Origin: a virus
Taxonomy: Duplodnaviria; Caudoviricetes
Direction: 5' to 3' (one strand)
Length of the DNA: 36,562 bases
Virus record (IMG/VR): IMGVR_UViG_3300024310_000019
Span: 1-36,562 of that record
Position 1 is the first letter of the stretch. Every line of letters begins with the position of its first letter. A model generated the notes under the pieces. That model saw only the letters and a list, made by a program, of their open reading frames with translations, was not told the origin of the DNA and searched no databases. The position numbers and the translations under genes are program-made. This document shows positions 1-36,562 of the stretch, one piece after another.

Positions 1-730
1 CGCCACTTATATCTGCCTGAATGGGTTGTACTTTGCTTTTGGCTGCTGACGATTGCATGTGCTTTTCGTAGGCTTCTAATACCCATCCACCTTTGCATAG
101 GCATAGATAGCAGCTGTCCTGAGTCTTTTTCTTCCTGCATAGGTAGTTACTTAGCTTATCGAGCATCCACTCGAGCTGCTCCGCACCATACAGATCGAGC
201 AGCTTGCCATGTTCCTCTTCAGTGAGATCCACCCTTTCACGATAAAAAATCTTAGGAGTGTGTGGAGCGTAAGCGCTCTCTTCTTGTTCTTTCTTTTTCT
301 TTCTTTTCTCTTCTTGATTGTGGCCCTTTGCTGGCCCTTTGCTGGCCCCTTGCTGGCCCTTTTGCTGGCCCTCATTTTCACAAAATGACTCTGTCAACCA
401 TCTGTAGACTGAAAACTTGCTGGTCGTTTTGCTGGCCACTTTTTCGAGCTTTTTTGCTTCAATGAGCTGAAACTGCTGGCCCCTAATCTCTTTATCTGTG
501 AGTCCAGTTTGCTCAGAACATATGGATCTTCCGAAGATAAATTCGAAAGGTTCGAGCTCAATTTCTTTGTGATCATGAAAAACTGTGCGTTTTTTGCAGC
601 TGCATCTTCCGAAACACCACCAGACAAACATTAGGCATTTCAAATGCCCTCCTCCCTTTCTTGGCTTAAACCACTCATGCTCGAGAAAGTATCTGGGGAT
701 AACGATAAACGGAAAATCTAGGTTAGACAT
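1..730 (-). CDS. Phage replication initiator (lambda O/DnaD-like), 3'-truncated at the window edge
   Basis: Not in the ORF track. Manual translation from ATG 730 (SD GAGGTG) is open to the edge: MSNLDFPFIVIPRYFLEHEWF...IELEPFEFIFGRSICSEQTGLTDKEIRG...LTEEEHGKLLDLYGAEQLEWMLDKLSNY; it contains iterons as O-type genes do. Confidence 0.85.
   Translation of the reverse strand, partial: MSNLDFPFIVIPRYFLEHEWFKPRKGGGHLKCLMFVWWCFGRCSCKKRTVFHDHKEIELEPFEFIFGRSICSEQTGLTDKEIRGQQFQLIEAKKLEKVASKTTSKFSVYRWLTESFCENEGQQKGQQGASKGPAKGHNQEEKRKKKKEQEESAYAPHTPKIFYRERVDLTEEEHGKLLDLYGAEQLEWMLDKLSNYLCRKKKTQDSCYLCLCKGGWVLEAYEKHMQSSAAKSKVQPIQADISG
277..483. repeat. Iterons plus polypyrimidine tract: putative replication origin inside the initiator gene
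   Basis: Tandem 11-12 bp (T)TTGCTGGCCC repeats at ~319-371, degenerate copies at 417-437 and 474-483, and an adjacent CT-rich tract at 277-315. Confidence 0.8.
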
Positions 731-771
731 TGGTCACCTCTTTTTTTTGTAGAGGTGCCGGAGGAAATGAC

Positions 772-1909: not shown

Positions 1910-2239
1910 CTAGCCTTCACTCTTTTTTCCCTTTTCATAGTCGGTGCTTTTATTTGGGCAATACTTTGAGAGACGATTTTTTACCCTATTTTCTAGTCTT
2001 GGCCTACCTGCTTTTCTTGAACCTGGCAATCTCTCTTTTGGTTCTTCTGTCTCGTTGGTAGGCAGCATGTCCTTACAGGTGACAGCTCCTAACGTGGCAT
2101 TCTCTATCTTCAATGCGACACGCAATGTAGGTTCCTTGCCTGACATTACGTTGTGGATGGTCCCTAGAGATACTCCCGCTTTTGATGCGAAAAATGATAT
2201 CTTTGTGCCATTTGATAATAAATACTCTCTGAGCTTCAT
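1910..2239 (-). CDS. Cro-like (XRE/YdaS-type) HTH regulator with basic C-terminal tail
   Basis: MKLREYLLSNGTKISFFASKAGVSLGTIHNVMSGKEPTLRVALKIENATLGAVTCKDM; start revised to ATG 2239 with SD AGAGG. Confidence 0.85.
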   Translation of the reverse strand: MKLREYLLSNGTKISFFASKAGVSLGTIHNVMSGKEPTLRVALKIENATLGAVTCKDMLPTNETEEPKERLPGSRKAGRPRLENRVKNRLSKYCPNKSTDYEKGKKSEG

Positions 2240-2272
2240 GTGAGGCCTCTTTGCTTTTTTATGATTATCCTC

Positions 2273-2344
2273 TTGCGGAATATTATTCAATCCGCTATAT
2301 TTATGGATGTAAGCGATTGTAGCCTACAGAGTGAAAAACGTCAA
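2273..2344. promoter_or_regulatory. Face-to-face promoter pair with inverted-repeat operators
   Basis: + strand TTGCGG(2273)-N17-TATATT(2296); - strand TTGACG(2344)-N17-TACAAT(2321); IRs GCGGA-N11-TCCGC (2275-2295) and TGTAG-C-CTACA (2318-2328). Confidence 0.7.
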
Positions 2345-2566: not shown

Positions 2567-2840
2567 GGCCAGCAGAGATGATTATATCGCTCGTGAAATG
2601 TATGAGCGGAGAAAGATTATCCTAGATGAAGCTTCCCAGTATGTCCCACAACCTCTGTCGGAAGCACTCATTGACTTGCTAATCGCCGCTCATGACTGGG
2701 ATATACCAGAAGCAGATAAATTTATCAACTTGTTGCACCTAGAGGATAAAGACTGGGCTGCCCTTAAGGATGATAGACGCACCTACACCGATATACTAAA
2801 TCAGGAGGAATATGATGCAAGATCCATGTACTACGGATGA
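2547..2840 (+). CDS. Hypothetical protein
   Basis: 97 aa ORF with SD AAGGAG. Confidence 0.75.
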   Translation: MYEMLDKASRDDYIAREMYERRKIILDEASQYVPQPLSEALIDLLIAAHDWDIPEADKFINLLHLEDKDWAALKDDRRTYTDILNQEEYDARSMYYG

Positions 2841-3390
2841 GTTTCAAGGATGTACCAGGGTAACAACTGTGCTGGCTCCGTTCTCGGGGCTGGCCAATAT
2901 ACCTCTAAGCGTATTGAATAATGCGGCGGAGAGAGGCACTGTGGTGCATCGTATATGTGAGGGGTACATCATGGGTTATGGAGTATCTATACCAGATCAG
3001 TATAAGGGATATGTGGATAGCTTCTTACAGTGGTATGAGGGTAAGGACTTCCTGCCTAATCCAGGACGATTGTACGACAAGGTTAATATGATCACTGGTG
3101 AATGCGATGCCATATGGGATAGTGATGATGGCAATCACCTAGTAGACTTTAAGACATCTGTTCGAGAAGGAAAGACATGGCCTTTGCAGGGTGTGGCATA
3201 CAAAAACTTGCTAGAGTTAAATGGAATCTCTGTAGATAGAATTATATTTGTTAAACTAGATAAGAACGGTCTAGAACCAACGGTATACGAATACGACTAT
3301 GAACAGCATGAGGAGACATGGGCAAGATGCCTTAAGGTGTACAGAGACTTTTTTGATTGTAAGATCATCCCTTTCGAAGAAATTATTTAA
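2812..3390 (+). CDS. PD-(D/E)XK phage exonuclease (partner of Bet)
   Basis: RVTTVL...AAERGTVVH...GECD...LVDFKTS...QGVAY motifs; adjacent to the recombinase. Confidence 0.85.
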   Translation: MMQDPCTTDEFQGCTRVTTVLAPFSGLANIPLSVLNNAAERGTVVHRICEGYIMGYGVSIPDQYKGYVDSFLQWYEGKDFLPNPGRLYDKVNMITGECDAIWDSDDGNHLVDFKTSVREGKTWPLQGVAYKNLLELNGISVDRIIFVKLDKNGLEPTVYEYDYEQHEETWARCLKVYRDFFDCKIIPFEEII

Positions 3391-3402
3391 TTAGGTTTAA
3401 CA

Positions 3403-4182
3403 ATGAATGAATTAGTTGAGAATAAAAACACTGGACTTAATCAGTTCCCACAGGAGAAGATTGCACTTCTAAAGAGCACCATTTGCAAAGGAGCTAGTGA
3501 CTTGGAGCTGCAATTTTTTATCCATGTATGTGCTAAGACGGGACTAGATCCTTTCCTACGCCAGATATACTCTATACCACGTGGAGGCACTAGGACTATA
3601 CAGACGGGCATCGATGGCTATCGCGTTATAGCAGACCGTACAGGTCGCTATTCTCCTGGTAGGGATCCCGTGTATTCTTACGATGAGAAAGGTGGATTAT
3701 TATCAGCCACGGCGTACGTGAAGAAGATGACTCCTGATGGTGTATGGCATGACATATCAGCAACAGCATTCTGGGCTGAATACTCGGCCAAGACGTCCTT
3801 CTGGGATAAGATGCCACATAATCAGCTGGCTAAGTGTGCTGAAGCTCTAGCACTGCGTAAGGCATTCCCGGCAGAGTTATCGGGAATCTACACTGCTGAA
3901 GAGATGGACCAAGCTGACCATCCGGTCATTGAGGTGCAAAAACCTGTCAAAGCCATAGAGCCTAGCAGAGAGCATGTCAACAATGAGATGAGGATGTTCT
4001 TAGACCAATTCGATGCCAGGGATAAAGATCACATGAGAGAGTATCTTGAGAAGTATTCCAATCACTGGAAGAAGACATTATGGGAAGGGTTCTCAGAGTA
4101 TTCTAACGATCCAGAGAGATTTTGCAGGGACTTTAGTGTATGGAAGAATAAACACTATCCACAGACGAAGGAAGTTGTTTAG
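3403..4182 (+). CDS. bet: Phage recombination protein Bet (Red-beta/RecT family single-strand annealing protein)
   Basis: GLDPFLRQIY, GIDGYRVIADRTG, WDKMPHNQLAKCAEALALRKAFP, GIYTAEEM signatures. Confidence 0.93.
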   Translation: MNELVENKNTGLNQFPQEKIALLKSTICKGASDLELQFFIHVCAKTGLDPFLRQIYSIPRGGTRTIQTGIDGYRVIADRTGRYSPGRDPVYSYDEKGGLLSATAYVKKMTPDGVWHDISATAFWAEYSAKTSFWDKMPHNQLAKCAEALALRKAFPAELSGIYTAEEMDQADHPVIEVQKPVKAIEPSREHVNNEMRMFLDQFDARDKDHMREYLEKYSNHWKKTLWEGFSEYSNDPERFCRDFSVWKNKHYPQTKEVV

Positions 4183-4184
4183 AG

Positions 4185-4298
4185 GAAAGTGTCACGACGG
4201 GACTTATTGCCTGGCAGCATCCCGTCGTGGGTAGATACGAAGGTATCGTATCTGGGTGTAGATATACACATACTACCAAATACTATAAAAACTGTCAA
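4185..4298 (-). ncRNA. Antisense sRNA cassette D
   Basis: - strand TTGACA(4298)-N17-TAGTAT(4275) with TG extension; hairpin AGATACGA/TCGTATCT 4233-4253; perfect 10-bp stem CACGACGGGA/TCCCGTCGTG 4193-4229; U-tract weak. Confidence 0.6.
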
Positions 4299-4310
4299 CA
4301 TGGAGACGAT

Positions 4311-4508
4311 ATGATTGAATGGATACCAGCGGTAAGCATGTTTTTAGCTAGTGCCGCTCTAATATGTTGGTTTAGGCAAGAATCAAGATCAGATTATCGC
4401 CATATGGATGCTAAGATTGAAGCCAACTTGCAGGCGATTAGAGATGAAATGAAAGACTTTCACGGTCGTCTATGCGCCATAGAGGAAAGAAACAAAACTA
4501 AGGCTTAG
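4311..4508 (+). CDS. Small membrane-anchored coiled-coil protein (MKDFHGRLCAIEER type)
   Basis: ATG 4311 with SD GGAGA; N-terminal TM helix followed by coiled coil. Confidence 0.75.
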   Translation: MIEWIPAVSMFLASAALICWFRQESRSDYRHMDAKIEANLQAIRDEMKDFHGRLCAIEERNKTKA

Positions 4509-23745: not shown

Positions 23746-24696
23746 CTATGAGTGGGTTGCGCGTAGGTTAAATATCCAAGCATCATTCAAAATGCGAGGT
23801 ACCTGAGCCATTTTAAATGCACCCAACTGCAACCTTCTAAGAGGGTCTGTAGGACCACCTGGAGGTGTGTAAATAAACGATGAAGTCGCTGTAGTTAGCT
23901 CCACAATGGCATATGCTTCTTGCCCGGTAATGAATACGTTATAAACTGTATTCCCGTTCAAAGATGCTCCTGTTGTGGTGCTTCCTCTTGAGCTATACAA
24001 GAATCTAACGTTACCAACGGAACCCCATTCGGAATTCAATACATTCATGTTGCTAGGATATTGTGCTTGTGATATAAATCCAGTAACAGCTTCTAAATCA
24101 TCTAAGATACCAGTATTCATCATAGCCCAGAAAGCTTCACGAACTGGCGCAGTTCCAAACTTCAAACTACCTTCTATATTATCTGAGATCATAATGGCAT
24201 CGTTTCCTAACAATGCTAAAACTACAGCATCTATATCAGGCCTTGATAGTTCTGTTGGGTTGTCTCCATTAGTCCCACCAGTACAGTTTATCACTGAGCT
24301 AGTAGAAGCTAGCATGTTTCTTATTAATTCATCCTCTGTTTCTCTCATTGACTGAGCTAGAAGACTTACTGTTTGGTTAAGAACTGGGTCCTGATTTATG
24401 AACATAACTTGATCTGTTATGGTAACGTAAGTACCATACCAATCAAGCCTTGCATCAATATCAGTGGCATTCAATACCTGCCCAGGAGGGGTCAACCCAC
24501 TATCTGGTAATGGCACTGTAGCGGTTTGTAAGTTAGTATAGCGACGATATCTCACGATTCGGCCGCTATTAGGGGGAAGTTCCTTCTTCATAGCCATTTG
24601 CTTATGAATAAGCTTAGGCATTGGCCTAGACAGCAATACGTTGTCAAACCATTGCTGTACTGGCGCTGGAAGGCTGTTTGTTGTGGTAATTGTCAT
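23746..24696 (-). CDS. Major capsid protein (N4-gp56 family, HK97 fold)
   Basis: LPPNSGRIVRYRRY, GLTPPG, WYGTYVTITD, EWGSVGNVRF, DPLRR...KM...ILNDAWI. Confidence 0.92.
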   Translation of the reverse strand: MTITTTNSLPAPVQQWFDNVLLSRPMPKLIHKQMAMKKELPPNSGRIVRYRRYTNLQTATVPLPDSGLTPPGQVLNATDIDARLDWYGTYVTITDQVMFINQDPVLNQTVSLLAQSMRETEDELIRNMLASTSSVINCTGGTNGDNPTELSRPDIDAVVLALLGNDAIMISDNIEGSLKFGTAPVREAFWAMMNTGILDDLEAVTGFISQAQYPSNMNVLNSEWGSVGNVRFLYSSRGSTTTGASLNGNTVYNVFITGQEAYAIVELTTATSSFIYTPPGGPTDPLRRLQLGAFKMAQVPRILNDAWIFNLRATHS

Positions 24697-25496: not shown

Positions 25497-25901
25497 CTAT
25501 GATGGCAATAAGTCATCGTAGTGGTATCTAATTCCCGCTTTGTTTATTGATGCTATTGTCTCTGGAACAGGCTCATTTTTGCCTCCTACTGACCACGTTG
25601 GCCAATCTCCTGGCAATGCCCATTCTAAAGTTAGCTTCCCTTCTTCTGGGTTTACTCCAAAAAGCATGCACGACAGCATCATAGGTGGTTTTTGAGCCAT
25701 GATCATGATTACTTGTCGTATCTCTCTGGGGTTTTGCCAATTGGGTTTAGCGTGAACACAGATGTAGTACGATTCACCCCTAAAAGGTTTGCTGTTGATG
25801 ATATTTTCTATCTTCTTCATCAACCCTCTGGTCATCGCCTCTCTAGTTTCACCTAGTTCTTGCCCAGATGTTTCATAGGGCACTTGAATGTGCACGGTCA
25901 T
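25497..25901 (-). CDS. Hypothetical protein
   Basis: 134 aa; TGATG coupling to the His-rich gene. Confidence 0.75.
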   Translation of the reverse strand: MTVHIQVPYETSGQELGETREAMTRGLMKKIENIINSKPFRGESYYICVHAKPNWQNPREIRQVIMIMAQKPPMMLSCMLFGVNPEEGKLTLEWALPGDWPTWSVGGKNEPVPETIASINKAGIRYHYDDLLPS

Positions 25902-26257
25902 CAGGCTATCTTCGTGAATTTTTCTCTAGAAAGTTTCTTCGCATCTCTGCTCAAAATTTCATTCTGGTGCTTGAGATACGCATTACCTCTCATGTGATGT
26001 TCTGGGAAACCCCCATGAGACATCTCATGATCCGAATGGTAACCTTTATCATAGTGGTGAGCGCCTTCCATCATTGGAGGTCCCCTGTCGGGATTGCCAT
26101 GTGGTTCGTGTTCACTATGATGTGCATGGTGAGAATGGTGAGAATGATGATGGCCATGTACACTATGGTGTGTACTATGATGTTCGTGATGGCCATGATG
26201 AGCATGGTGAGCATGGTGTTTTCCATGCTTATGGTGATGCTCTTTTTTATGGTGCAT
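25901..26257 (-). CDS. Histidine-rich protein
   Basis: 38 His in 118 aa by manual count; SD AGGAGG; coupled to the downstream gene. Confidence 0.85.
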   Translation of the reverse strand: MHHKKEHHHKHGKHHAHHAHHGHHEHHSTHHSVHGHHHSHHSHHAHHSEHEPHGNPDRGPPMMEGAHHYDKGYHSDHEMSHGGFPEHHMRGNAYLKHQNEILSRDAKKLSREKFTKIA

Positions 26258-28112: not shown

Positions 28113-28445
28113 TCATTCATATAATTCCATTTTATCAGGAGGTTTAGGTAGTGGCATCCAGTGGGTTATTGTGCCCAAGTTTCTAAAGTGAGGACTATTT
28201 ACAAATATATCTATGTCATCGTCATCATCTATACAATAATTTCCGTCAGGTTTTTTCTTGATAAACTGACATGAGCATAAATATTTATCTTTAAATTCTT
28301 CTTCTAGCTCTTCACGGAAATCTTCCAGCACCCAAAACCAAGCCACACCTACACCGTAGACCGTATGAAAAGCTAACACAAATGAATGCTCTCTACTTCC
28401 CTGATAAAGTGGCAACCTTTCTTTAATGCTGATCCACTTACCCAT
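28113..28445 (-). CDS. DUF551 family protein
   Basis: KWISIKERLP...ITHWMPLPKPP. Confidence 0.88.
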   Translation of the reverse strand: MGKWISIKERLPLYQGSREHSFVLAFHTVYGVGVAWFWVLEDFREELEEEFKDKYLCSCQFIKKKPDGNYCIDDDDDIDIFVNSPHFRNLGTITHWMPLPKPPDKMELYE

Positions 28446-28505
28446 CTTGATTCTTTCCCCATTTGGTTACCCCTATCATCATGTCAGGGTATTTCATTTT
28501 CTATA

Positions 28506-28748
28506 TTAAGGTCTTAAATGCATGTAAAGCGTAGCCACACGAACTCCCACTTCATTAGTCAATCTATTCTCTATATTGGTAAGGTTGTCCTCCAATTCCT
28601 TGTCACTATCCCATGATCGAGCTTCGTCTTGTAATTTCTCTAAATTTTCCAAGAACCATAATATATTTACCAGGTGTTCATCGTGTCTTAGTAGAAATCT
28701 CTTGAACTCGTCTCTTTCTACTAAATTAGCAAAGTTGTAATCTTTCAT
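28506..28748 (-). CDS. Hypothetical protein
   Basis: 80 aa helical ORF. Confidence 0.65.
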   Translation of the reverse strand: MKDYNFANLVERDEFKRFLLRHDEHLVNILWFLENLEKLQDEARSWDSDKELEDNLTNIENRLTNEVGVRVATLYMHLRP

Positions 28749-28773
28749 ATAATCTTAACCATATTTCTTAGTA

Positions 28774-28801
28774 GTGTCTGATAATATATGTTATGTTGCT
28801 T
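28774..28801 (+). other. dif-like XerC/XerD recombination site
   Basis: GTGTCTGATAA-TATATG-TTATGTTGCTT versus E. coli dif GGTGCGCATAA-TGTATA-TTATGTTAAAT; 11-6-11 layout; intergenic. Confidence 0.75.
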
Positions 28802-28900
28802 TTCAAGTGCCCTATAAGTCTTGTGAGGGCATCGACCATTTATTAAGATTAATACACCTCTCACAATGTATTGTAGAGACTTGACAAAATTATATATTAA

Positions 28901-29134
28901 TTATTTGTCTCTTAACAATTCATCTTTCACCTCAAGAGATTCTGGCAACGACATCCAATGCACTATACAACTACCACACTCATTACAACTTGATGACCAA
29001 AACCCCCTCTTATCATACCAGGCTATGAAGGGCTTGTGTTGAGTGCCTTTGCATTTTACCAAAACAAAATCTGATGTATTATCCTTACACACTATCTCAG
29101 GCAACCTATCCTCAACGCTTATCCACTCACTCAT
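28901..29134 (-). CDS. DUF551 family protein
   Basis: MSEWISVEDRLPE...HWMSLPE. Confidence 0.88.
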   Translation of the reverse strand: MSEWISVEDRLPEIVCKDNTSDFVLVKCKGTQHKPFIAWYDKRGFWSSSCNECGSCIVHWMSLPESLEVKDELLRDK

Positions 29135-29360
29135 CTTTGGTCAATCTCCATCTGTCACCCTCTAGCGGATAAATTGTAGGCTCATCTTTCACCATTAACT
29201 TCTCAATGTCGCTCGACAACCTCTCAACATTCTGAATCATTGGCGTCATTCTGGCATCTCTATTCAATTTATTTATGTCATGCAATATATTTATTATCAT
29301 AGAACAGCACCGACGGCATGCTCCTAGCAGATTACTGATTTTATCTATAGACATAGACAC
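29127..29360 (-). CDS. Hypothetical protein
   Basis: 77 aa, overlaps both neighbours. Confidence 0.6.
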   Translation of the reverse strand: MSMSIDKISNLLGACRRCCSMIINILHDINKLNRDARMTPMIQNVERLSSDIEKLMVKDEPTIYPLEGDRWRLTKDE

Positions 29361-29665
29361 GCTACCACTTCATTCTTGCAGCATGGGCAGAACTTATCTT
29401 TCACCTTAGGCAGTTCAGGTAATGGCATCCAATGGGTGATATGATCTACGTCGATACCCCACGCACAATAGTCAACCCTAAAACAACAGCTATTTCTTGA
29501 TATATCATTGAAGCATTCATCGTCCACATTTAGTCCTGATAGATGATGATATTCGTTTTGATTACTGGAGTTGTACTCACCAATAGCGACCTTACATCCG
29601 TCTGTGAACAGGATTACTTCTTCAAAGTCTGGCAAACTATCCTCAATACTTATCCATGCACCCAT
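29345..29665 (-). CDS. DUF551 family protein
   Basis: AWISIEDSLPD...ITHWMPLPELP. Confidence 0.88.
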   Translation of the reverse strand: MGAWISIEDSLPDFEEVILFTDGCKVAIGEYNSSNQNEYHHLSGLNVDDECFNDISRNSCCFRVDYCAWGIDVDHITHWMPLPELPKVKDKFCPCCKNEVVACLCL

Positions 29666-30347: not shown

Positions 30348-32459
30348 TTACATCTGTGGCGACATGGCTTGAGACAAATTTGATTGCCCTTGTGGTTGTT
30401 GTGCAGGTGAGGGCCTAGTCTTCTGTTCAGCTTCATCACTCCCTGAAGATAGTCCAGAGGTCTTATTCTCTGAATCAACCTCTTCACCTTCTGCCATTGC
30501 TTGCTCGCGATCTTGAATACTCTGGACAAAGTTAGCCAAGGTGATCAGGTGATTAGAATCCATATCCCTAAGCTCTTTCAAGGCTTTGACTTGTGCTAAG
30601 GTGCCTGCTGCACGGTCCTGCTGGCTCTTACTAGCTACTTCCTTAGCCTTAGATACTTCATAGAATGCCCTAGCCTTTGATTCTGTAGCCTTAGCGAAGT
30701 CACTTTGAGCTTTAGCCTCAATAGATCTAGTGAGTATTTCTCCCTGCCTCAACTCTTGCATAGCTGCTGCTTGTTGCATCTGCTGTTGCTGTTGGTCCTG
30801 ACGATTGACGTCTTCTATGATTCCCTTCTTCCCTTGCAACGTAGACTTCTGGATAAGGTATTCATTTGATATAGGAATGCCAATACCCTTAAGATATATT
30901 GCCTGCTTAAACTGAAGCTGTCTCTGTGTGTCTGTAAGGGCTGCTTCTTCAACCACTGAATGATACTTAGTCAACCACTCTTGGCTAAACTCTGGTGATG
31001 GCTGCTCACCAATTATCTGAGCCACTTTCCCAGGTGAGAAATTATTCTGGATCAACTGCACCGCGATGTCACTTAGTGACTTCTGGCTATAGTTTAGACG
31101 GTCAAAGATGTTTTGCAATGACACTAATCCGGCGCCCATCTTCAGCTGCATCATGATGCCAGAATCATCATTACCATTCATGTCCTCACCGAACAGCTCT
31201 TCAGGAGTGCCAACAATGGACATTATCTCATTGTCTAAAGTCTGAATAAGCTCAGGCCATCCTTGTGCTACAGGAGGTGCTGGGATTGGCGCCACATCAG
31301 TAGCTAAATTGGCGCTATTCTTGAAGTAGAGAACCTTGCCAGGTCCTTGGAAGAATGCATCCTCCGGGTTTACCAAAGCATCTTCTTTGACCATGAAACC
31401 ACTTTGCACCTGTGCATCAAGGATATCTAACAGTCTGTTGCGACGCCTGTTTAGCTCTATCTGAGAATCACGAATATTACGGACTACTCCCTGGTACCTA
31501 TATGCATAGTTCTGCACCTCTGGGAAGTGATAGCAGATAAATGGAACGAAGGGAAATCTATCAAGGCCCCAAGGCGAGACTTCCTCGTACATCAGGTGGT
31601 TATTGACCAAAACATTCAGCTTTATCGTAGGAACATGAGCCGTGATTAGCTCAATGTTAGGGTTGATTGACCTAAACATCTGAAACTGATCTCTCGTTCC
31701 GTTCCAATCAACCACTTCACCGGTAGATTTATCGAGGATCTTCTTCTTTTTCTTGTAGTCCCTTACCCAATACTCATCATAAGCATACATCTGCTCCTGA
31801 TATTGATACCAATTCTGCGCCAAGAACTGAAATTTACCATCCTTCGCAGCATATCCACTACCCAAAGCCGGTATGTCCTTATCAATCTTAGGAAATATGC
31901 TCTGCAATTGCCTCTTGGTGATGTATCTCCTCGTCCATATGCGATCACAGTCACTTAAATCCTGCTTAGTCCAGTAGTTATCCATCAGAAAGGCGTTAAA
32001 TGGTATCCTCTCCGTTCGGATCGCTCCATTTTCTGGGTCTTCCCTATGATCAACCCAAACATGCAAAAGGTTGAGGCCACAAATATTAGAGCCGTCGAAG
32101 CATTCGGATATCTTTTCATACGTATTGTCCTGTCTATATACCCAACTCAGCACCTTAGTCAGTTGCTCAGCTGTCTGTCCCATGTCTTGGTCGTTATCCG
32201 AGGGGTACACAACAGATGCTAGCCTATTCTTACGCTGATATCCGCCTATCATGTTGATGATCCGCAATATCTTGTTGAACATCAGCACTTTCTGATTGCG
32301 ATAATTTACATTATAGAAAGAATTCCAATAGTCCTGCTGCCCAGTAGCCATTTTGGTGTCTAAGTCGGCTTCGAACCACCACTGTTGCCACAAGGATTGG
32401 CTCTCTTTCCAAAAATCGTCCAGCTCTCTAGATACTGGGTTGCTCGTTGGCCAAGTCAT
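30348..32459 (-). CDS. Portal protein (P22-like)
   Basis: 703 aa; GQQ...FNKILRIINMIGGYQRKNR, FPFVPF, GVVRNIRDSQIELNRRR; C-terminal coiled-coil barrel. Confidence 0.92.
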   Translation of the reverse strand: MTWPTSNPVSRELDDFWKESQSLWQQWWFEADLDTKMATGQQDYWNSFYNVNYRNQKVLMFNKILRIINMIGGYQRKNRLASVVYPSDNDQDMGQTAEQLTKVLSWVYRQDNTYEKISECFDGSNICGLNLLHVWVDHREDPENGAIRTERIPFNAFLMDNYWTKQDLSDCDRIWTRRYITKRQLQSIFPKIDKDIPALGSGYAAKDGKFQFLAQNWYQYQEQMYAYDEYWVRDYKKKKKILDKSTGEVVDWNGTRDQFQMFRSINPNIELITAHVPTIKLNVLVNNHLMYEEVSPWGLDRFPFVPFICYHFPEVQNYAYRYQGVVRNIRDSQIELNRRRNRLLDILDAQVQSGFMVKEDALVNPEDAFFQGPGKVLYFKNSANLATDVAPIPAPPVAQGWPELIQTLDNEIMSIVGTPEELFGEDMNGNDDSGIMMQLKMGAGLVSLQNIFDRLNYSQKSLSDIAVQLIQNNFSPGKVAQIIGEQPSPEFSQEWLTKYHSVVEEAALTDTQRQLQFKQAIYLKGIGIPISNEYLIQKSTLQGKKGIIEDVNRQDQQQQQMQQAAAMQELRQGEILTRSIEAKAQSDFAKATESKARAFYEVSKAKEVASKSQQDRAAGTLAQVKALKELRDMDSNHLITLANFVQSIQDREQAMAEGEEVDSENKTSGLSSGSDEAEQKTRPSPAQQPQGQSNLSQAMSPQM

Positions 32460-33323: not shown

Positions 33324-33515
33324 TCAACACTCCGACTTGAGTTTTCTCATTTCTTCTACCAACCTATTCAAAACAATGTTTTGTCTGTCTATTTCAGACT
33401 GCAAGGCAGCGGAGCTAATGTCCTGCCACTCCTTTTGCCTAGTCAGAATCCTGATGTGGCTACGGATCCACTCTATTTCTTCCCAACACTTGCTTATCGT
33501 ATCTTCTGACATCAA
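33324..33515 (-). CDS. Small coiled-coil protein
   Basis: 63 aa, coupled to the TerL stop. Confidence 0.65.
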   Translation of the reverse strand: MMSEDTISKCWEEIEWIRSHIRILTRQKEWQDISSAALQSEIDRQNIVLNRLVEEMRKLKSEC

Positions 33516-34825
33516 TACCCCAGGTTACGTTGCCGCATTTCTTTGATCTTATCTGGTGTTAGAGTTCCTGATCCCTGTGAGTAGCTCTGCCTAGCCATGG
33601 CACAATACCTGAAGGCATCAGCACCATGCGAAGACCAATCATGCACAGGGGTATCACTATAACAATGCATCTTGTCGTTGAATTTCTTGTGGTAGCTCTC
33701 CAGACATTTGAGTAACATAACGCAACGTACCTCATCAAAGTAACAAACGTTTAGTAGCGTTCGTGCCGCTTCGATACCAATCTCTAAGTCGTCACGCTTG
33801 AGCACTGTAGTCCTTAATCCTAATTCTGCAGCAACCTGTTGCAAGGTCTTACCAGTCTGTATGCTTCCTGATCCAGCATCGTGAGGAAAGAAGTGCGTTC
33901 CATAGACATATGGCTTGTTCTGCAGCAGCTTAATATAGTGTGATAACCCTTCACCATGCGCTTCGTAGTAGTCGATAATCCTAAACTCAGTGCCAACCTG
34001 CTGGGCAAAAATGATAGAAGTGCTGTCGCCATAGCCTATGTCCCAGTAAGTATTAACCTGGGAGCGCGGTTCGTAGGGAACTTTCCCAACACGTTGGTCC
34101 TTTCGCACCTGGTCTAAGAGCCTGCCATAGTAAGAGCCCTCAACACCTCTATCGTAGCTACAATAGTACTCCTGCTGTATGATCTCTTCGCTCTTACCTT
34201 CCTTGCGCTCTTGCTCTATAGCCTCAATAGGTATTAGCTTGGTGTCGTCTATTGTTAGTCTCTGATAGAACCACTTTTCAGGATTCTCTCTAGCGACCTG
34301 GTCTAGCTCGTACTGATGATTCTTACCCCTAGGCGTTCCATTGAATACTGCCCATCCACCATTTTTTACCAAGATAGGACTTACAATGAGCGTCCAAACT
34401 GTAGGATCTTGTAAACTGTACTCGCTGAATACACAACCAACAGGATTAGTGCCAGCCACAGCATCGTAGTTATCAGTACCAATAAGTTGAAAAATCGATC
34501 CATTGATTAGCTTTATCTTCATCTGTGTTTCGTTGGGCTTGCCATCCACAAAGTTCTTAGGGAATGCCTCAATTAGTCGCTTCCCATCTTCATCGATGCC
34601 ATCCCATATCACTGCTCTCGCCTGCCTAAATGTAGGGAAGAAATAGTAGTAGGTGCCCACAGTCTTCAGCATCTCATTGACCATGAAGTTTAGCGTAGCT
34701 ACATCCTTGCCAGCTCGTCGATGCCATACTAATAGAGCGCGTTTCTTACCATCTAACATGGCTCTTTCGAATGTTTCTTGATAATCTCTAGGCTTATAAT
34801 TGATATTAACTTCGATCGTGGGCAT
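33512..34825 (-). CDS. terL: Terminase large subunit
   Basis: Walker A-like WHRRAGKD, Walker B VFSEY, GTPRG coupling motif, nuclease motifs WDIG and SHGADAFRY. Confidence 0.95.
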   Translation of the reverse strand: MPTIEVNINYKPRDYQETFERAMLDGKKRALLVWHRRAGKDVATLNFMVNEMLKTVGTYYYFFPTFRQARAVIWDGIDEDGKRLIEAFPKNFVDGKPNETQMKIKLINGSIFQLIGTDNYDAVAGTNPVGCVFSEYSLQDPTVWTLIVSPILVKNGGWAVFNGTPRGKNHQYELDQVARENPEKWFYQRLTIDDTKLIPIEAIEQERKEGKSEEIIQQEYYCSYDRGVEGSYYGRLLDQVRKDQRVGKVPYEPRSQVNTYWDIGYGDSTSIIFAQQVGTEFRIIDYYEAHGEGLSHYIKLLQNKPYVYGTHFFPHDAGSGSIQTGKTLQQVAAELGLRTTVLKRDDLEIGIEAARTLLNVCYFDEVRCVMLLKCLESYHKKFNDKMHCYSDTPVHDWSSHGADAFRYCAMARQSYSQGSGTLTPDKIKEMRQRNLGY

Positions 34826-35856: not shown

Positions 35857-36562
35857 TTAATACCCTGCAGGTGTTTGTGTGAATGAATCGCTTACTGGAT
35901 TGTAGTTTAGGTTTATTGTGAATTGCTTACCTAGCAATCTGTTTTTAACTACACTCAGCTGTACTTTGTTTTTCTGTGAAATATCTAGGACATCCATCCT
36001 GTGGAGTATGATTATGGCATCTGGATATTGTTTGATGGATGCGCTACCTTTTAGATCGTTTAGGGTGATGGCTCTGATTGCTCCTTGGACTTGCTTTATA
36101 TGGGCTACAAGAATTATGCCTACATTAAATTCCATAGCTATTGAGTGCAATTTTCTCATGCAATCGTCTATACTTTCCGTAACATTTTTTGCTTTTGGCG
36201 ACTGTATGTAGTCTAGGTGGTCAACGATCACGTACTCTATGCCATATGCTAGAGAGGCTATTTCTATGTCTGCTCTTAATGTGTCTATGTCTGATCCTTC
36301 ATTGCCTTGGTTGATGTGTAAGCCCTTTGGTGCTGCCCATTCTTTATATTCGTTTTTCTCTTTCTCCGTGAATGCTCTAATTTTCAGGTTCTTTTCAAGG
36401 ACTATTGAAGCTATTTTTCTATGTATAGTTTTCGGATTCATTTCATAGCTATTGATCCATACATTCTTACCTCTATTAACCAAGTTCACAGCTAGATTAA
36501 CGCACCATGTAGTTTTGCCACAACCTGTTTCAGCCGTAACGACAATTACCTCACCTTTTCTT
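35857..36562 (-). CDS. SF4 replicative helicase (DnaB/T7 gp4/Twinkle-like), 5'-truncated
   Basis: Frame is open to the edge with Walker A GEVIVVTAETGCGKTT; SYEM, IVDHL, LVAH, DLKGSASIKQ, VVKNR. Confidence 0.92.
   Translation of the reverse strand, partial: RKGEVIVVTAETGCGKTTWCVNLAVNLVNRGKNVWINSYEMNPKTIHRKIASIVLEKNLKIRAFTEKEKNEYKEWAAPKGLHINQGNEGSDIDTLRADIEIASLAYGIEYVIVDHLDYIQSPKAKNVTESIDDCMRKLHSIAMEFNVGIILVAHIKQVQGAIRAITLNDLKGSASIKQYPDAIIILHRMDVLDISQKNKVQLSVVKNRLLGKQFTINLNYNPVSDSFTQTPAGY

Follow-up and report, generated by a model that had tools for sequence, protein, structure and literature searches.

A chromosomal dif-type site of Chlamydiota in a tailed phage without an integrase gene, and its likely use by host XerC/XerD

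What is a dif-like site doing in a tailed phage that encodes no integrase? The question is raised by one locus in a linear phage genome of 36,562 nucleotides, a whole IMG/VR record, 97% complete (hereafter the window, meaning the entire stretch of DNA analysed). The initial annotation had described an intergenic 28-mer with the 11-6-11 dif layout at 28774..28801, and both its coordinates and its letters proved exact. The site lies on the plus strand, bounded by the end of the DUF551 ORF 28901-29134 (-) and the beginning of ORF 28506-28748 (-), and its two 11-bp arms show inner dyad symmetry around the 6-bp overlap. We take the left arm to be the XerC arm and the right one the XerD arm, by analogy with known sites. 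The features of the locus are as follows.

28774..28801, plus strand: copy of dif (likely attP), an 11-bp arm, a 6-bp overlap and an 11-bp arm, matching chromosomal dif of Chlamydiota
28774..28784, plus strand: left arm, ending at 28784, taken as the XerC arm by analogy; 9 of 11 bases equal the host consensus and the two outermost deviate
28785..28790, plus strand: overlap TATATG, more frequent than any other at dif in the family of genome G002 (16 of 70 sites)
28791..28801, plus strand: right arm, the presumed XerD arm; same sequence as in the host sites of G289, G293 and G256
28506..28748, minus strand: 80-aa orphan ORF just downstream of the site, without evidence for a role as Xer activator
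28901..29134, minus strand: DUF551 ORF upstream of the site, with two paralogues (28113-28445 and 29345-29665)

With a matrix of the arms only, derived from 33 chlamydial sites, the whole site scores 25.2. No other place in the window scores above 3.3, and the maximum over 300 Markov sequences is 19.0; the full site thus exceeds chance, the matrix being partly circular, as its host sites were fetched with a pattern derived from phage relatives. The 10-base inner core taken alone occurs once in the window and at least once in 12 of 100 shuffles, so it is not beyond chance. Promoter-like matches are at chance level (4 observed, 3.0 expected). No Rfam match at the gathering score was observed in the window or in the loci of five relatives. 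The E. coli KOPS motif occurs once in the window, which is uninformative. Contigs from four DNA sequencing sets show neither a joint nor a loose end at the site, and one 18.5-kb contig, from a set that may be the source sample, spans it; this is silent on integration, because contigs drop rare forms. The three DUF551 paralogues (28113-29665) surround the site within a variable island between the portal and capsid genes. An imperfect inverted repeat at 28821-28867, directly to the right of the site, was spotted by eye and is absent from the terminator calls.

The phage encodes a P22-like portal, terminase, capsid, tail genes, exonuclease, RecT and a helicase among its 64 ORFs. The best matches of capsid and portal to solved structures are weak. 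The genes to which we refer below are:

2..733, minus strand: likely replication initiator, truncated at the record's left end
1910..2290, minus strand: XRE/Cro-like HTH protein, where two early operons diverge
2812..4182, plus strand: exonuclease and RecT, an early operon without an integrase
23746..24696, minus strand: major capsid protein, the marker used for collecting relatives
30348..32459, minus strand: P22-like portal
33512..34825, minus strand: terminase large subunit, 43% identical over 192 aa to that of the G289 prophage
35857..36561, minus strand: primase-helicase, C-terminal half, truncated at the record's right end

Neither the 64 ORFs nor a six-frame search yielded a tyrosine or serine recombinase, in agreement with the initial annotation. 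It had also placed the missing part of the genome inside the replication module, and the record indeed breaks there. The ends of the record map to positions ~2,520 and ~3,395 of the complete sister genome G417, so that ~0.8 kb is missing. The corresponding interval of G417 holds the end of the initiator gene and the first half of a 498-aa primase-helicase, and no further gene; hence the missing segment hides no integrase. Neither a clear CI repressor nor ParA/ParB was found in the window. Two other proteins of the window are of some interest. One (25901-26257, minus strand; 118 aa) has a very histidine-rich N-terminus and is encoded upstream of the capsid cluster; a shorter histidine-rich protein is present in several relatives. 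The other (4227-4508, plus strand) belongs to a family of small membrane-anchored coiled-coil proteins, with up to three tandem copies in relatives, and a homologue sits 375 bp from the dif site of the chlamydial genome G091.

Comparison with dif sites by phylum pointed to Chlamydiota, the phylum being named from the titles of its records. Of 201 genomes in the phylum to which the Parachlamydia bin G002 belongs, 185 contain the pattern CYGATAA-N6-TTATGT (224 matches, mostly one per genome), against about 30 matches, counted by eye, of the reversed pattern. In the family of G002 a longer dif pattern was found in 61 of 73 genomes, with no control matches, and TATATG is the commonest overlap there. 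The host site of G057 deviates from that of the window at just one of the 26 bases printed for it. In G060, a complete chromosome, the dif site (1,112,442) coincides with the flip of GC skew: all 10 of the 20-kb stretches sampled ahead of the site have positive skew, and 10 of the 12 sampled beyond it have negative skew. A dif site has also been predicted for 14 of 14 Chlamydiae by Kono et al. (PMC3025954).

The candidate recombinases are present too. Two full Xer-like genes were found in four of five chlamydial genomes, the fifth, G002, having one full gene and one broken by a contig end. The XerD model scores above its cut-off in four of the five genomes and FtsK-gamma in all five. The XerC model stays below its cut-off of 335 in all five, with XerC-like matches close to it (280-325 bits).

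As judged from the sequence, the 28-mer is a copy of the chromosomal dif of Chlamydiota, matching both its arms and its overlap. The outer part of the right arm varies widely among hosts, and the whole right arm of the window equals that of 3 of 33 chlamydial sites (G289, G293, G256). The XerD arm had been called degenerate in its outer part, which holds only in comparison with proteobacterial dif. The host of the phage is likely a member of Chlamydiota, probably an environmental chlamydia of the Parachlamydia family. The left-arm motif alone cannot fix the host, because unrelated phages of 27-70% GC carry it too.

Prophage junctions at dif were sought in host assemblies, and a pair was found for a distant relative. 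The 137-kb contig G289:C1 contains two direct dif sites, at 41,986 and 77,697, which are 35,711 bp apart and have the same overlap:

G289:C1, 41,986: ACGTCTGATAA TGTATG TTATGTTGCTT
G289:C1, 77,697: GTGTCTGGGAA TGTATG TTATGTTGCAT

The interval codes for terminase, portal, capsid and tail proteins. In G060 the genes that border this region, ribH, ribAB and YihY on the left side and LemA and HtpX on the right, bracket an empty dif site. The site at 41,986 is the sole match in the genome with at most one mismatch, and the overlap TGTATG recurs in several relatives of G289. The arms of the second site score only 14.0, inside the upper tail of the null; its weight comes from the identical overlap, together with orientation, distance and flanks. 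Taken together, the overlap and the arms on the phage side of the two junctions match the site of the window at all but 3 of 28 positions. No PF00589 domain was found on the contig, and the 74 ORFs scanned in this region include no recombinase. At the sequence level, IMEX-type use of dif is demonstrated for this distant family member.

The G289 prophage is 43% identical to the window phage in the terminase, 29% in the capsid and 26% in the portal, forms a long branch in the portal tree, comes from a metagenome assembly, and appears to have a split terminase. The C-terminal and the likely N-terminal pieces of the latter (G289:C1:68,289-73,309; L474, L475) are separated by 3.4 kb that hold about eight small ORFs. 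A pair of Panacea (SocA-like) genes, 82% identical, has one member inside the prophage (G289:C1:75,694-76,668) and the other just outside the right junction (77,877-78,848). The ~1-kb repeat bearing the latter is possibly a remnant of an earlier element.

No such prophage was found for the close clade of the window phage. The capsid profile matched 10 of 401 genomes of the phylum (2 of 73 and 2 of 39 in two families) and the portal of G289 matched 8 of 400; among the genomes matched by profiles, only G289 has an intact-looking prophage. Close relatives were not seen within host DNA among the best 120 capsid clusters, where the longest contig has 41,342 bp, and no record among the 39 related ones from IMG/VR is labelled a provirus. 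The decayed remnants G175:C4 and G091:C1 lie away from dif, with no site nearby. Phage-like small genes occur within 1.5 kb of 4 of 68 host-site loci, compared with 0 of 18 control loci, a weak signal; one of the four is probably a phage contig. A candidate integrated copy, G004:C2:513,000-543,000 (L606-L608), was rejected as a likely chimera: it has 41% GC in an Actinomycetota contig of 73% GC, and no site. The phage in G004:C2 is close to G423 and lies at the end of the contig.

The site itself was sought in related phages. The capsid has 1707 relatives; a 34-row alignment was used to fetch 80 viral, 16 genome and 80 metagenome loci, and the portal added four. Three of the 16 genome matches are labelled as Simkaniaceae, Parachlamydia and Babeliales. 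The GenBank phage set contains only distant capsids (at most 28% identical). In a loose scan of the 180 loci, GTCYGATAA-N6-TTATG occurs once per close relative, in either orientation and with a changing overlap. A clear site, above the 99th percentile of the null, is present in 5 of 18 IMG/VR relatives that were at least 90% complete and had been picked by capsid alone: in 5 of 10 with capsid identity of at least 79% and in 0 of 8 with 56-58%. In a quick portal tree the clade of the window has eight members, of which six are clear site carriers. The presence of the site is patchy. Its position and orientation vary between relatives, and its flanks are conserved only in a few close pairs. G411 retains a weaker, decayed-looking intergenic copy directly after the portal gene, and G414 an intergenic half-site.

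The recombinase domain PF00589 was matched in 1 of 39 related records (29 of them selected through capsid or portal, the other 10 through motif and kinship), and a single record of 31 has PF00239. Both carriers lack a clear site, two being too few for a statistical claim on site versus recombinase. The tyrosine recombinase of one relative, G415, sits near the end of the exonuclease operon, and the equivalent place in the window has none. In many relatives (L049, L065, L092, L097, L101, L124, L484, L490, L611) the capsid gene is broken by inserts of 0.2-1.1 kb at differing codons; five loci gave no Rfam match at the gathering score, and the inserts may be unmodelled introns.

The overlaps bear on how the sites are used, since overlap homology is described as setting which att and dif recombine (10.64898/2026.06.12.731946). 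When 21 distinct phage sites were compared with 63 sampled host sites, a set that may contain a few phage contigs sitting in bins, five overlaps were equal to a host overlap, eight differed by one base and eight by two or three. Five exact matches compare with 0.32 expected, and none of 5000 shuffles reached five. We dropped the idea that variable overlaps rule out integration, since host overlaps vary too. In the bins G001, G002 and G256 the overlap of a free phage contig is unlike the bin's own dif, the binning of phage contigs being unreliable. The contig G001:C102 from a Simkaniaceae bin looks circular, with a 99-bp end repeat, and is equally consistent with a virion and a free circle.

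The initial annotation had suggested integration at the host dif or resolution of dimers by host XerCD. We consider it likely that the phage integrates at chlamydial dif by means of host XerC/XerD, with the 28-mer as the attachment site, because an integrase is absent, the site is a near-exact copy of host dif and a distant relative sits at dif. The linear phage genome would circularise after entry, and the circle would cross into the host dif through XerC/XerD. In normal resolution XerD acts first upon contact with FtsK and XerC second (10.64898/2026.06.12.731946), and in the FtsK-driven setting sites nearer to dif integrate better (PMC9226527). The same FtsK-activated order, XerD first and then XerC, might operate here without an activator from the phage. 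Of the two junctions, one would still function as dif. Excision would be easy from a pair of canonical junctions; G289 has one altered junction, and a mismatched second junction of this kind may slow excision. An altered second junction is described as stabilising LME-1 and the gonococcal genetic island (PMC9765430). The same site could also resolve dimers of the phage circle.

Given the overlap rule and FtsK-driven integration, canonical arms and a host-identical overlap imply that no activator would be needed. The initial annotation had proposed XafT-like activators among the small genes nearby, for instance 28506-28748, and this found no support: the ORF has no relative among 5.8 billion proteins, none of 5 records tested contains DUF3653, which is the XafT domain (PMC6744903), and the compared relatives share no gene family next to the site. 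All three observations fit integration with no activator. An activator of another kind is conceivable.

The most serious alternative, to which we give perhaps one chance in a few, is that the site is an XerCD target used only between copies of phage DNA, resolving dimers of a replicating or dormant circle, the match to host overlaps reflecting ancestry or drift and integration being a rare accident. It would account for the eight of 21 phage overlaps that are two or three bases off any sampled host overlap, for both arms being canonical, in contrast to the att sites of TLC or the gonococcal genetic island, and for close relatives never being seen integrated among the clusters and records searched. 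The wide occurrence of the motif with very diverse overlaps (see below) is in line with it as well. It is at odds with the location of the G289 prophage at dif, with exact overlap matches above chance and with the rarity of ParA, which exceeds the cut-off in 1 of 28 records. The plasmid-prophage lifestyle that had been suggested draws no support from partition genes; resolution of dimers is possible. The plasmid sites cer and psi are similar in that an Xer site on an extrachromosomal circle needs an overlap matching only itself, but they require ~180 bp of accessory sequence with PepA and ArgR (PMC5357621). No common accessory sequence of this type was seen at the phage sites, because the flanks are conserved only in few close pairs, and the phage family has an integrated member.

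It is improbable that the site is a relic, derived from a host terminus or a temperate ancestor and irrelevant to a phage that is now lytic. Its patchy presence, the decayed copy of G411 and the half-site of G414, the varying position and orientation and the lack of a clear CI repressor in the window would suit a relic, but in six of the eight members of the portal clade the arms are intact and the overlap and flanks are not conserved, a sign that the arms are under selection. A chance match, or a promoter or operator for another protein, is very improbable: the site is rich in AT, an ORF follows it, and its inner core arises in 12 of 100 shuffles, but its full score lies above the null maximum, the identical 6-bp spacing recurs in relatives in both orientations, and promoter-like matches are no more frequent than expected.

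Integration through host XerC/XerD, the reading we prefer, has several parallels among known systems. The use of XerCD had been said to be known mainly from filamentous phages, the TLC satellite, islands and plasmids. This list is incomplete: phages described as using XerCD include filamentous and tailless ones (PMC9966536, PMC12715192, PMC5357621, 10.1101/633727) and reportedly microviruses (PMC7062461, PMC3091885), and the tailed Legionella phage LME-1, which is short-tailed and 30 kb long, integrates at host dif via the host recombinase XerL (PMC9765430, PMC12407071). A tailed IMEX itself is thus not new, because LME-1 has been published at dif via XerL, and the principle is not new either, IMEXs being well known. 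LME-1 is the closest in kind, a short-tailed phage of an intracellular bacterium integrating at dif by a host recombinase, which leaves one intact and one modified dif (PMC9765430, PMC12407071). Its integration disrupts the repO locus; the right junction in G289 is directly upstream of a likely initiator gene. It differs in relying on a single recombinase, XerL, and in a 22-bp att with perfectly symmetric arms unlike Xer motifs, whereas the window has a full 28-bp site of XerC/XerD type and relates to Chlamydiota.

TLC-phi of Vibrio cholerae and the dif-type double jelly-roll phages resemble the window phage in having a double-stranded att with a host-like left arm and overlap, and no integrase (PMC6744903, PMC9226527, PMC12715192). 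However, they are small and tailless, unlike the window phage. TLC has a highly divergent XerD arm and XafT (DUF3653); the site of the window is not TLC-like, because its XerD arm is a normal chlamydial arm. The gonococcal genetic island is similarly large, has a 28-bp dif copy with the host overlap and is integrated in an FtsK-driven manner with no known activator of its own (PMC5357621, PMC9765430). It is not a phage and its XerD arm is the divergent one; in G289 the alteration affects the second junction's left arm, which is of XerC type. The IMEXs VGJ-phi and CTX-phi also employ host XerCD at dif (PMC5357621, 10.64898/2026.06.12.731946), but they are filamentous and their overlap blocks XerD exchange, whereas the window phage is tailed and its overlap fully matches the host. 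Relatives with mismatched overlaps could use a one-exchange route like that of VGJ or CTX.

Our literature search, which covered few subscription papers, found no description of tailed phages using XerC/XerD at dif and none of tailed phages of chlamydiae. Unclassified viruses predicted to infect Chlamydiales are mentioned in one paper (PMC12644861), and another (PMC11338181) has nothing further on the subject. The present data point to tailed temperate phages of Chlamydiota, and would extend the hijacking of dif by tailed phages from the single-recombinase case of LME-1 to the ordinary XerC/XerD system. Integrase-based tools score such phages as lytic. If a 28-bp site suffices for integration at the chlamydial terminus, it could offer a tool for the genetics of chlamydiae that live in amoebae, and dif copies on phage genomes could be of use in assigning hosts to uncultured phages. 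A broader reading, which we put forward tentatively, as possible, is that the window belongs to a large undescribed family of 35-41 kb podoviruses of Chlamydiota with a canonical XerC/XerD dif site as the lysogeny module, lacking integrase and activator. Its members would tune only the 6-bp overlap, those matching the host integrating and the others staying free and resolving their own dimers.

Sites of this kind extend beyond the family. From partial scans with one arm variant, we estimate that the motif with a 6-bp spacer occurs in ~1500 IMG/VR stretches, compared with ~270 for a 7-bp spacer, that is, an approximately fivefold excess. In 120 sampled motif stretches (L196-L315) the outer bases, which the search left unconstrained, follow a dif-like consensus, and the overlaps are very varied. 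Most of 80 sampled stretches with long flanks are outside the family of the window, and dif-like sites with 6-bp spacers occur in many unrelated dsDNA phages of 27-70% GC. Integrases were found in 1 of 19 unrelated motif carriers and in 5 of 28 controls with the 7-bp spacer, which is no signal (Fisher p 0.38). If the wider excess holds, borrowing of Xer would be a common and overlooked route for tailed phages and the site a tag for host prediction. Finally, the 25-kb contig G003:C14 from a Babeliales bin (L609) has two direct dif-like sites with unlike overlaps, at 366 and 18,551, with a phage-type helicase in the 18 kb between them; it is possible that this contig is a further IMEX.
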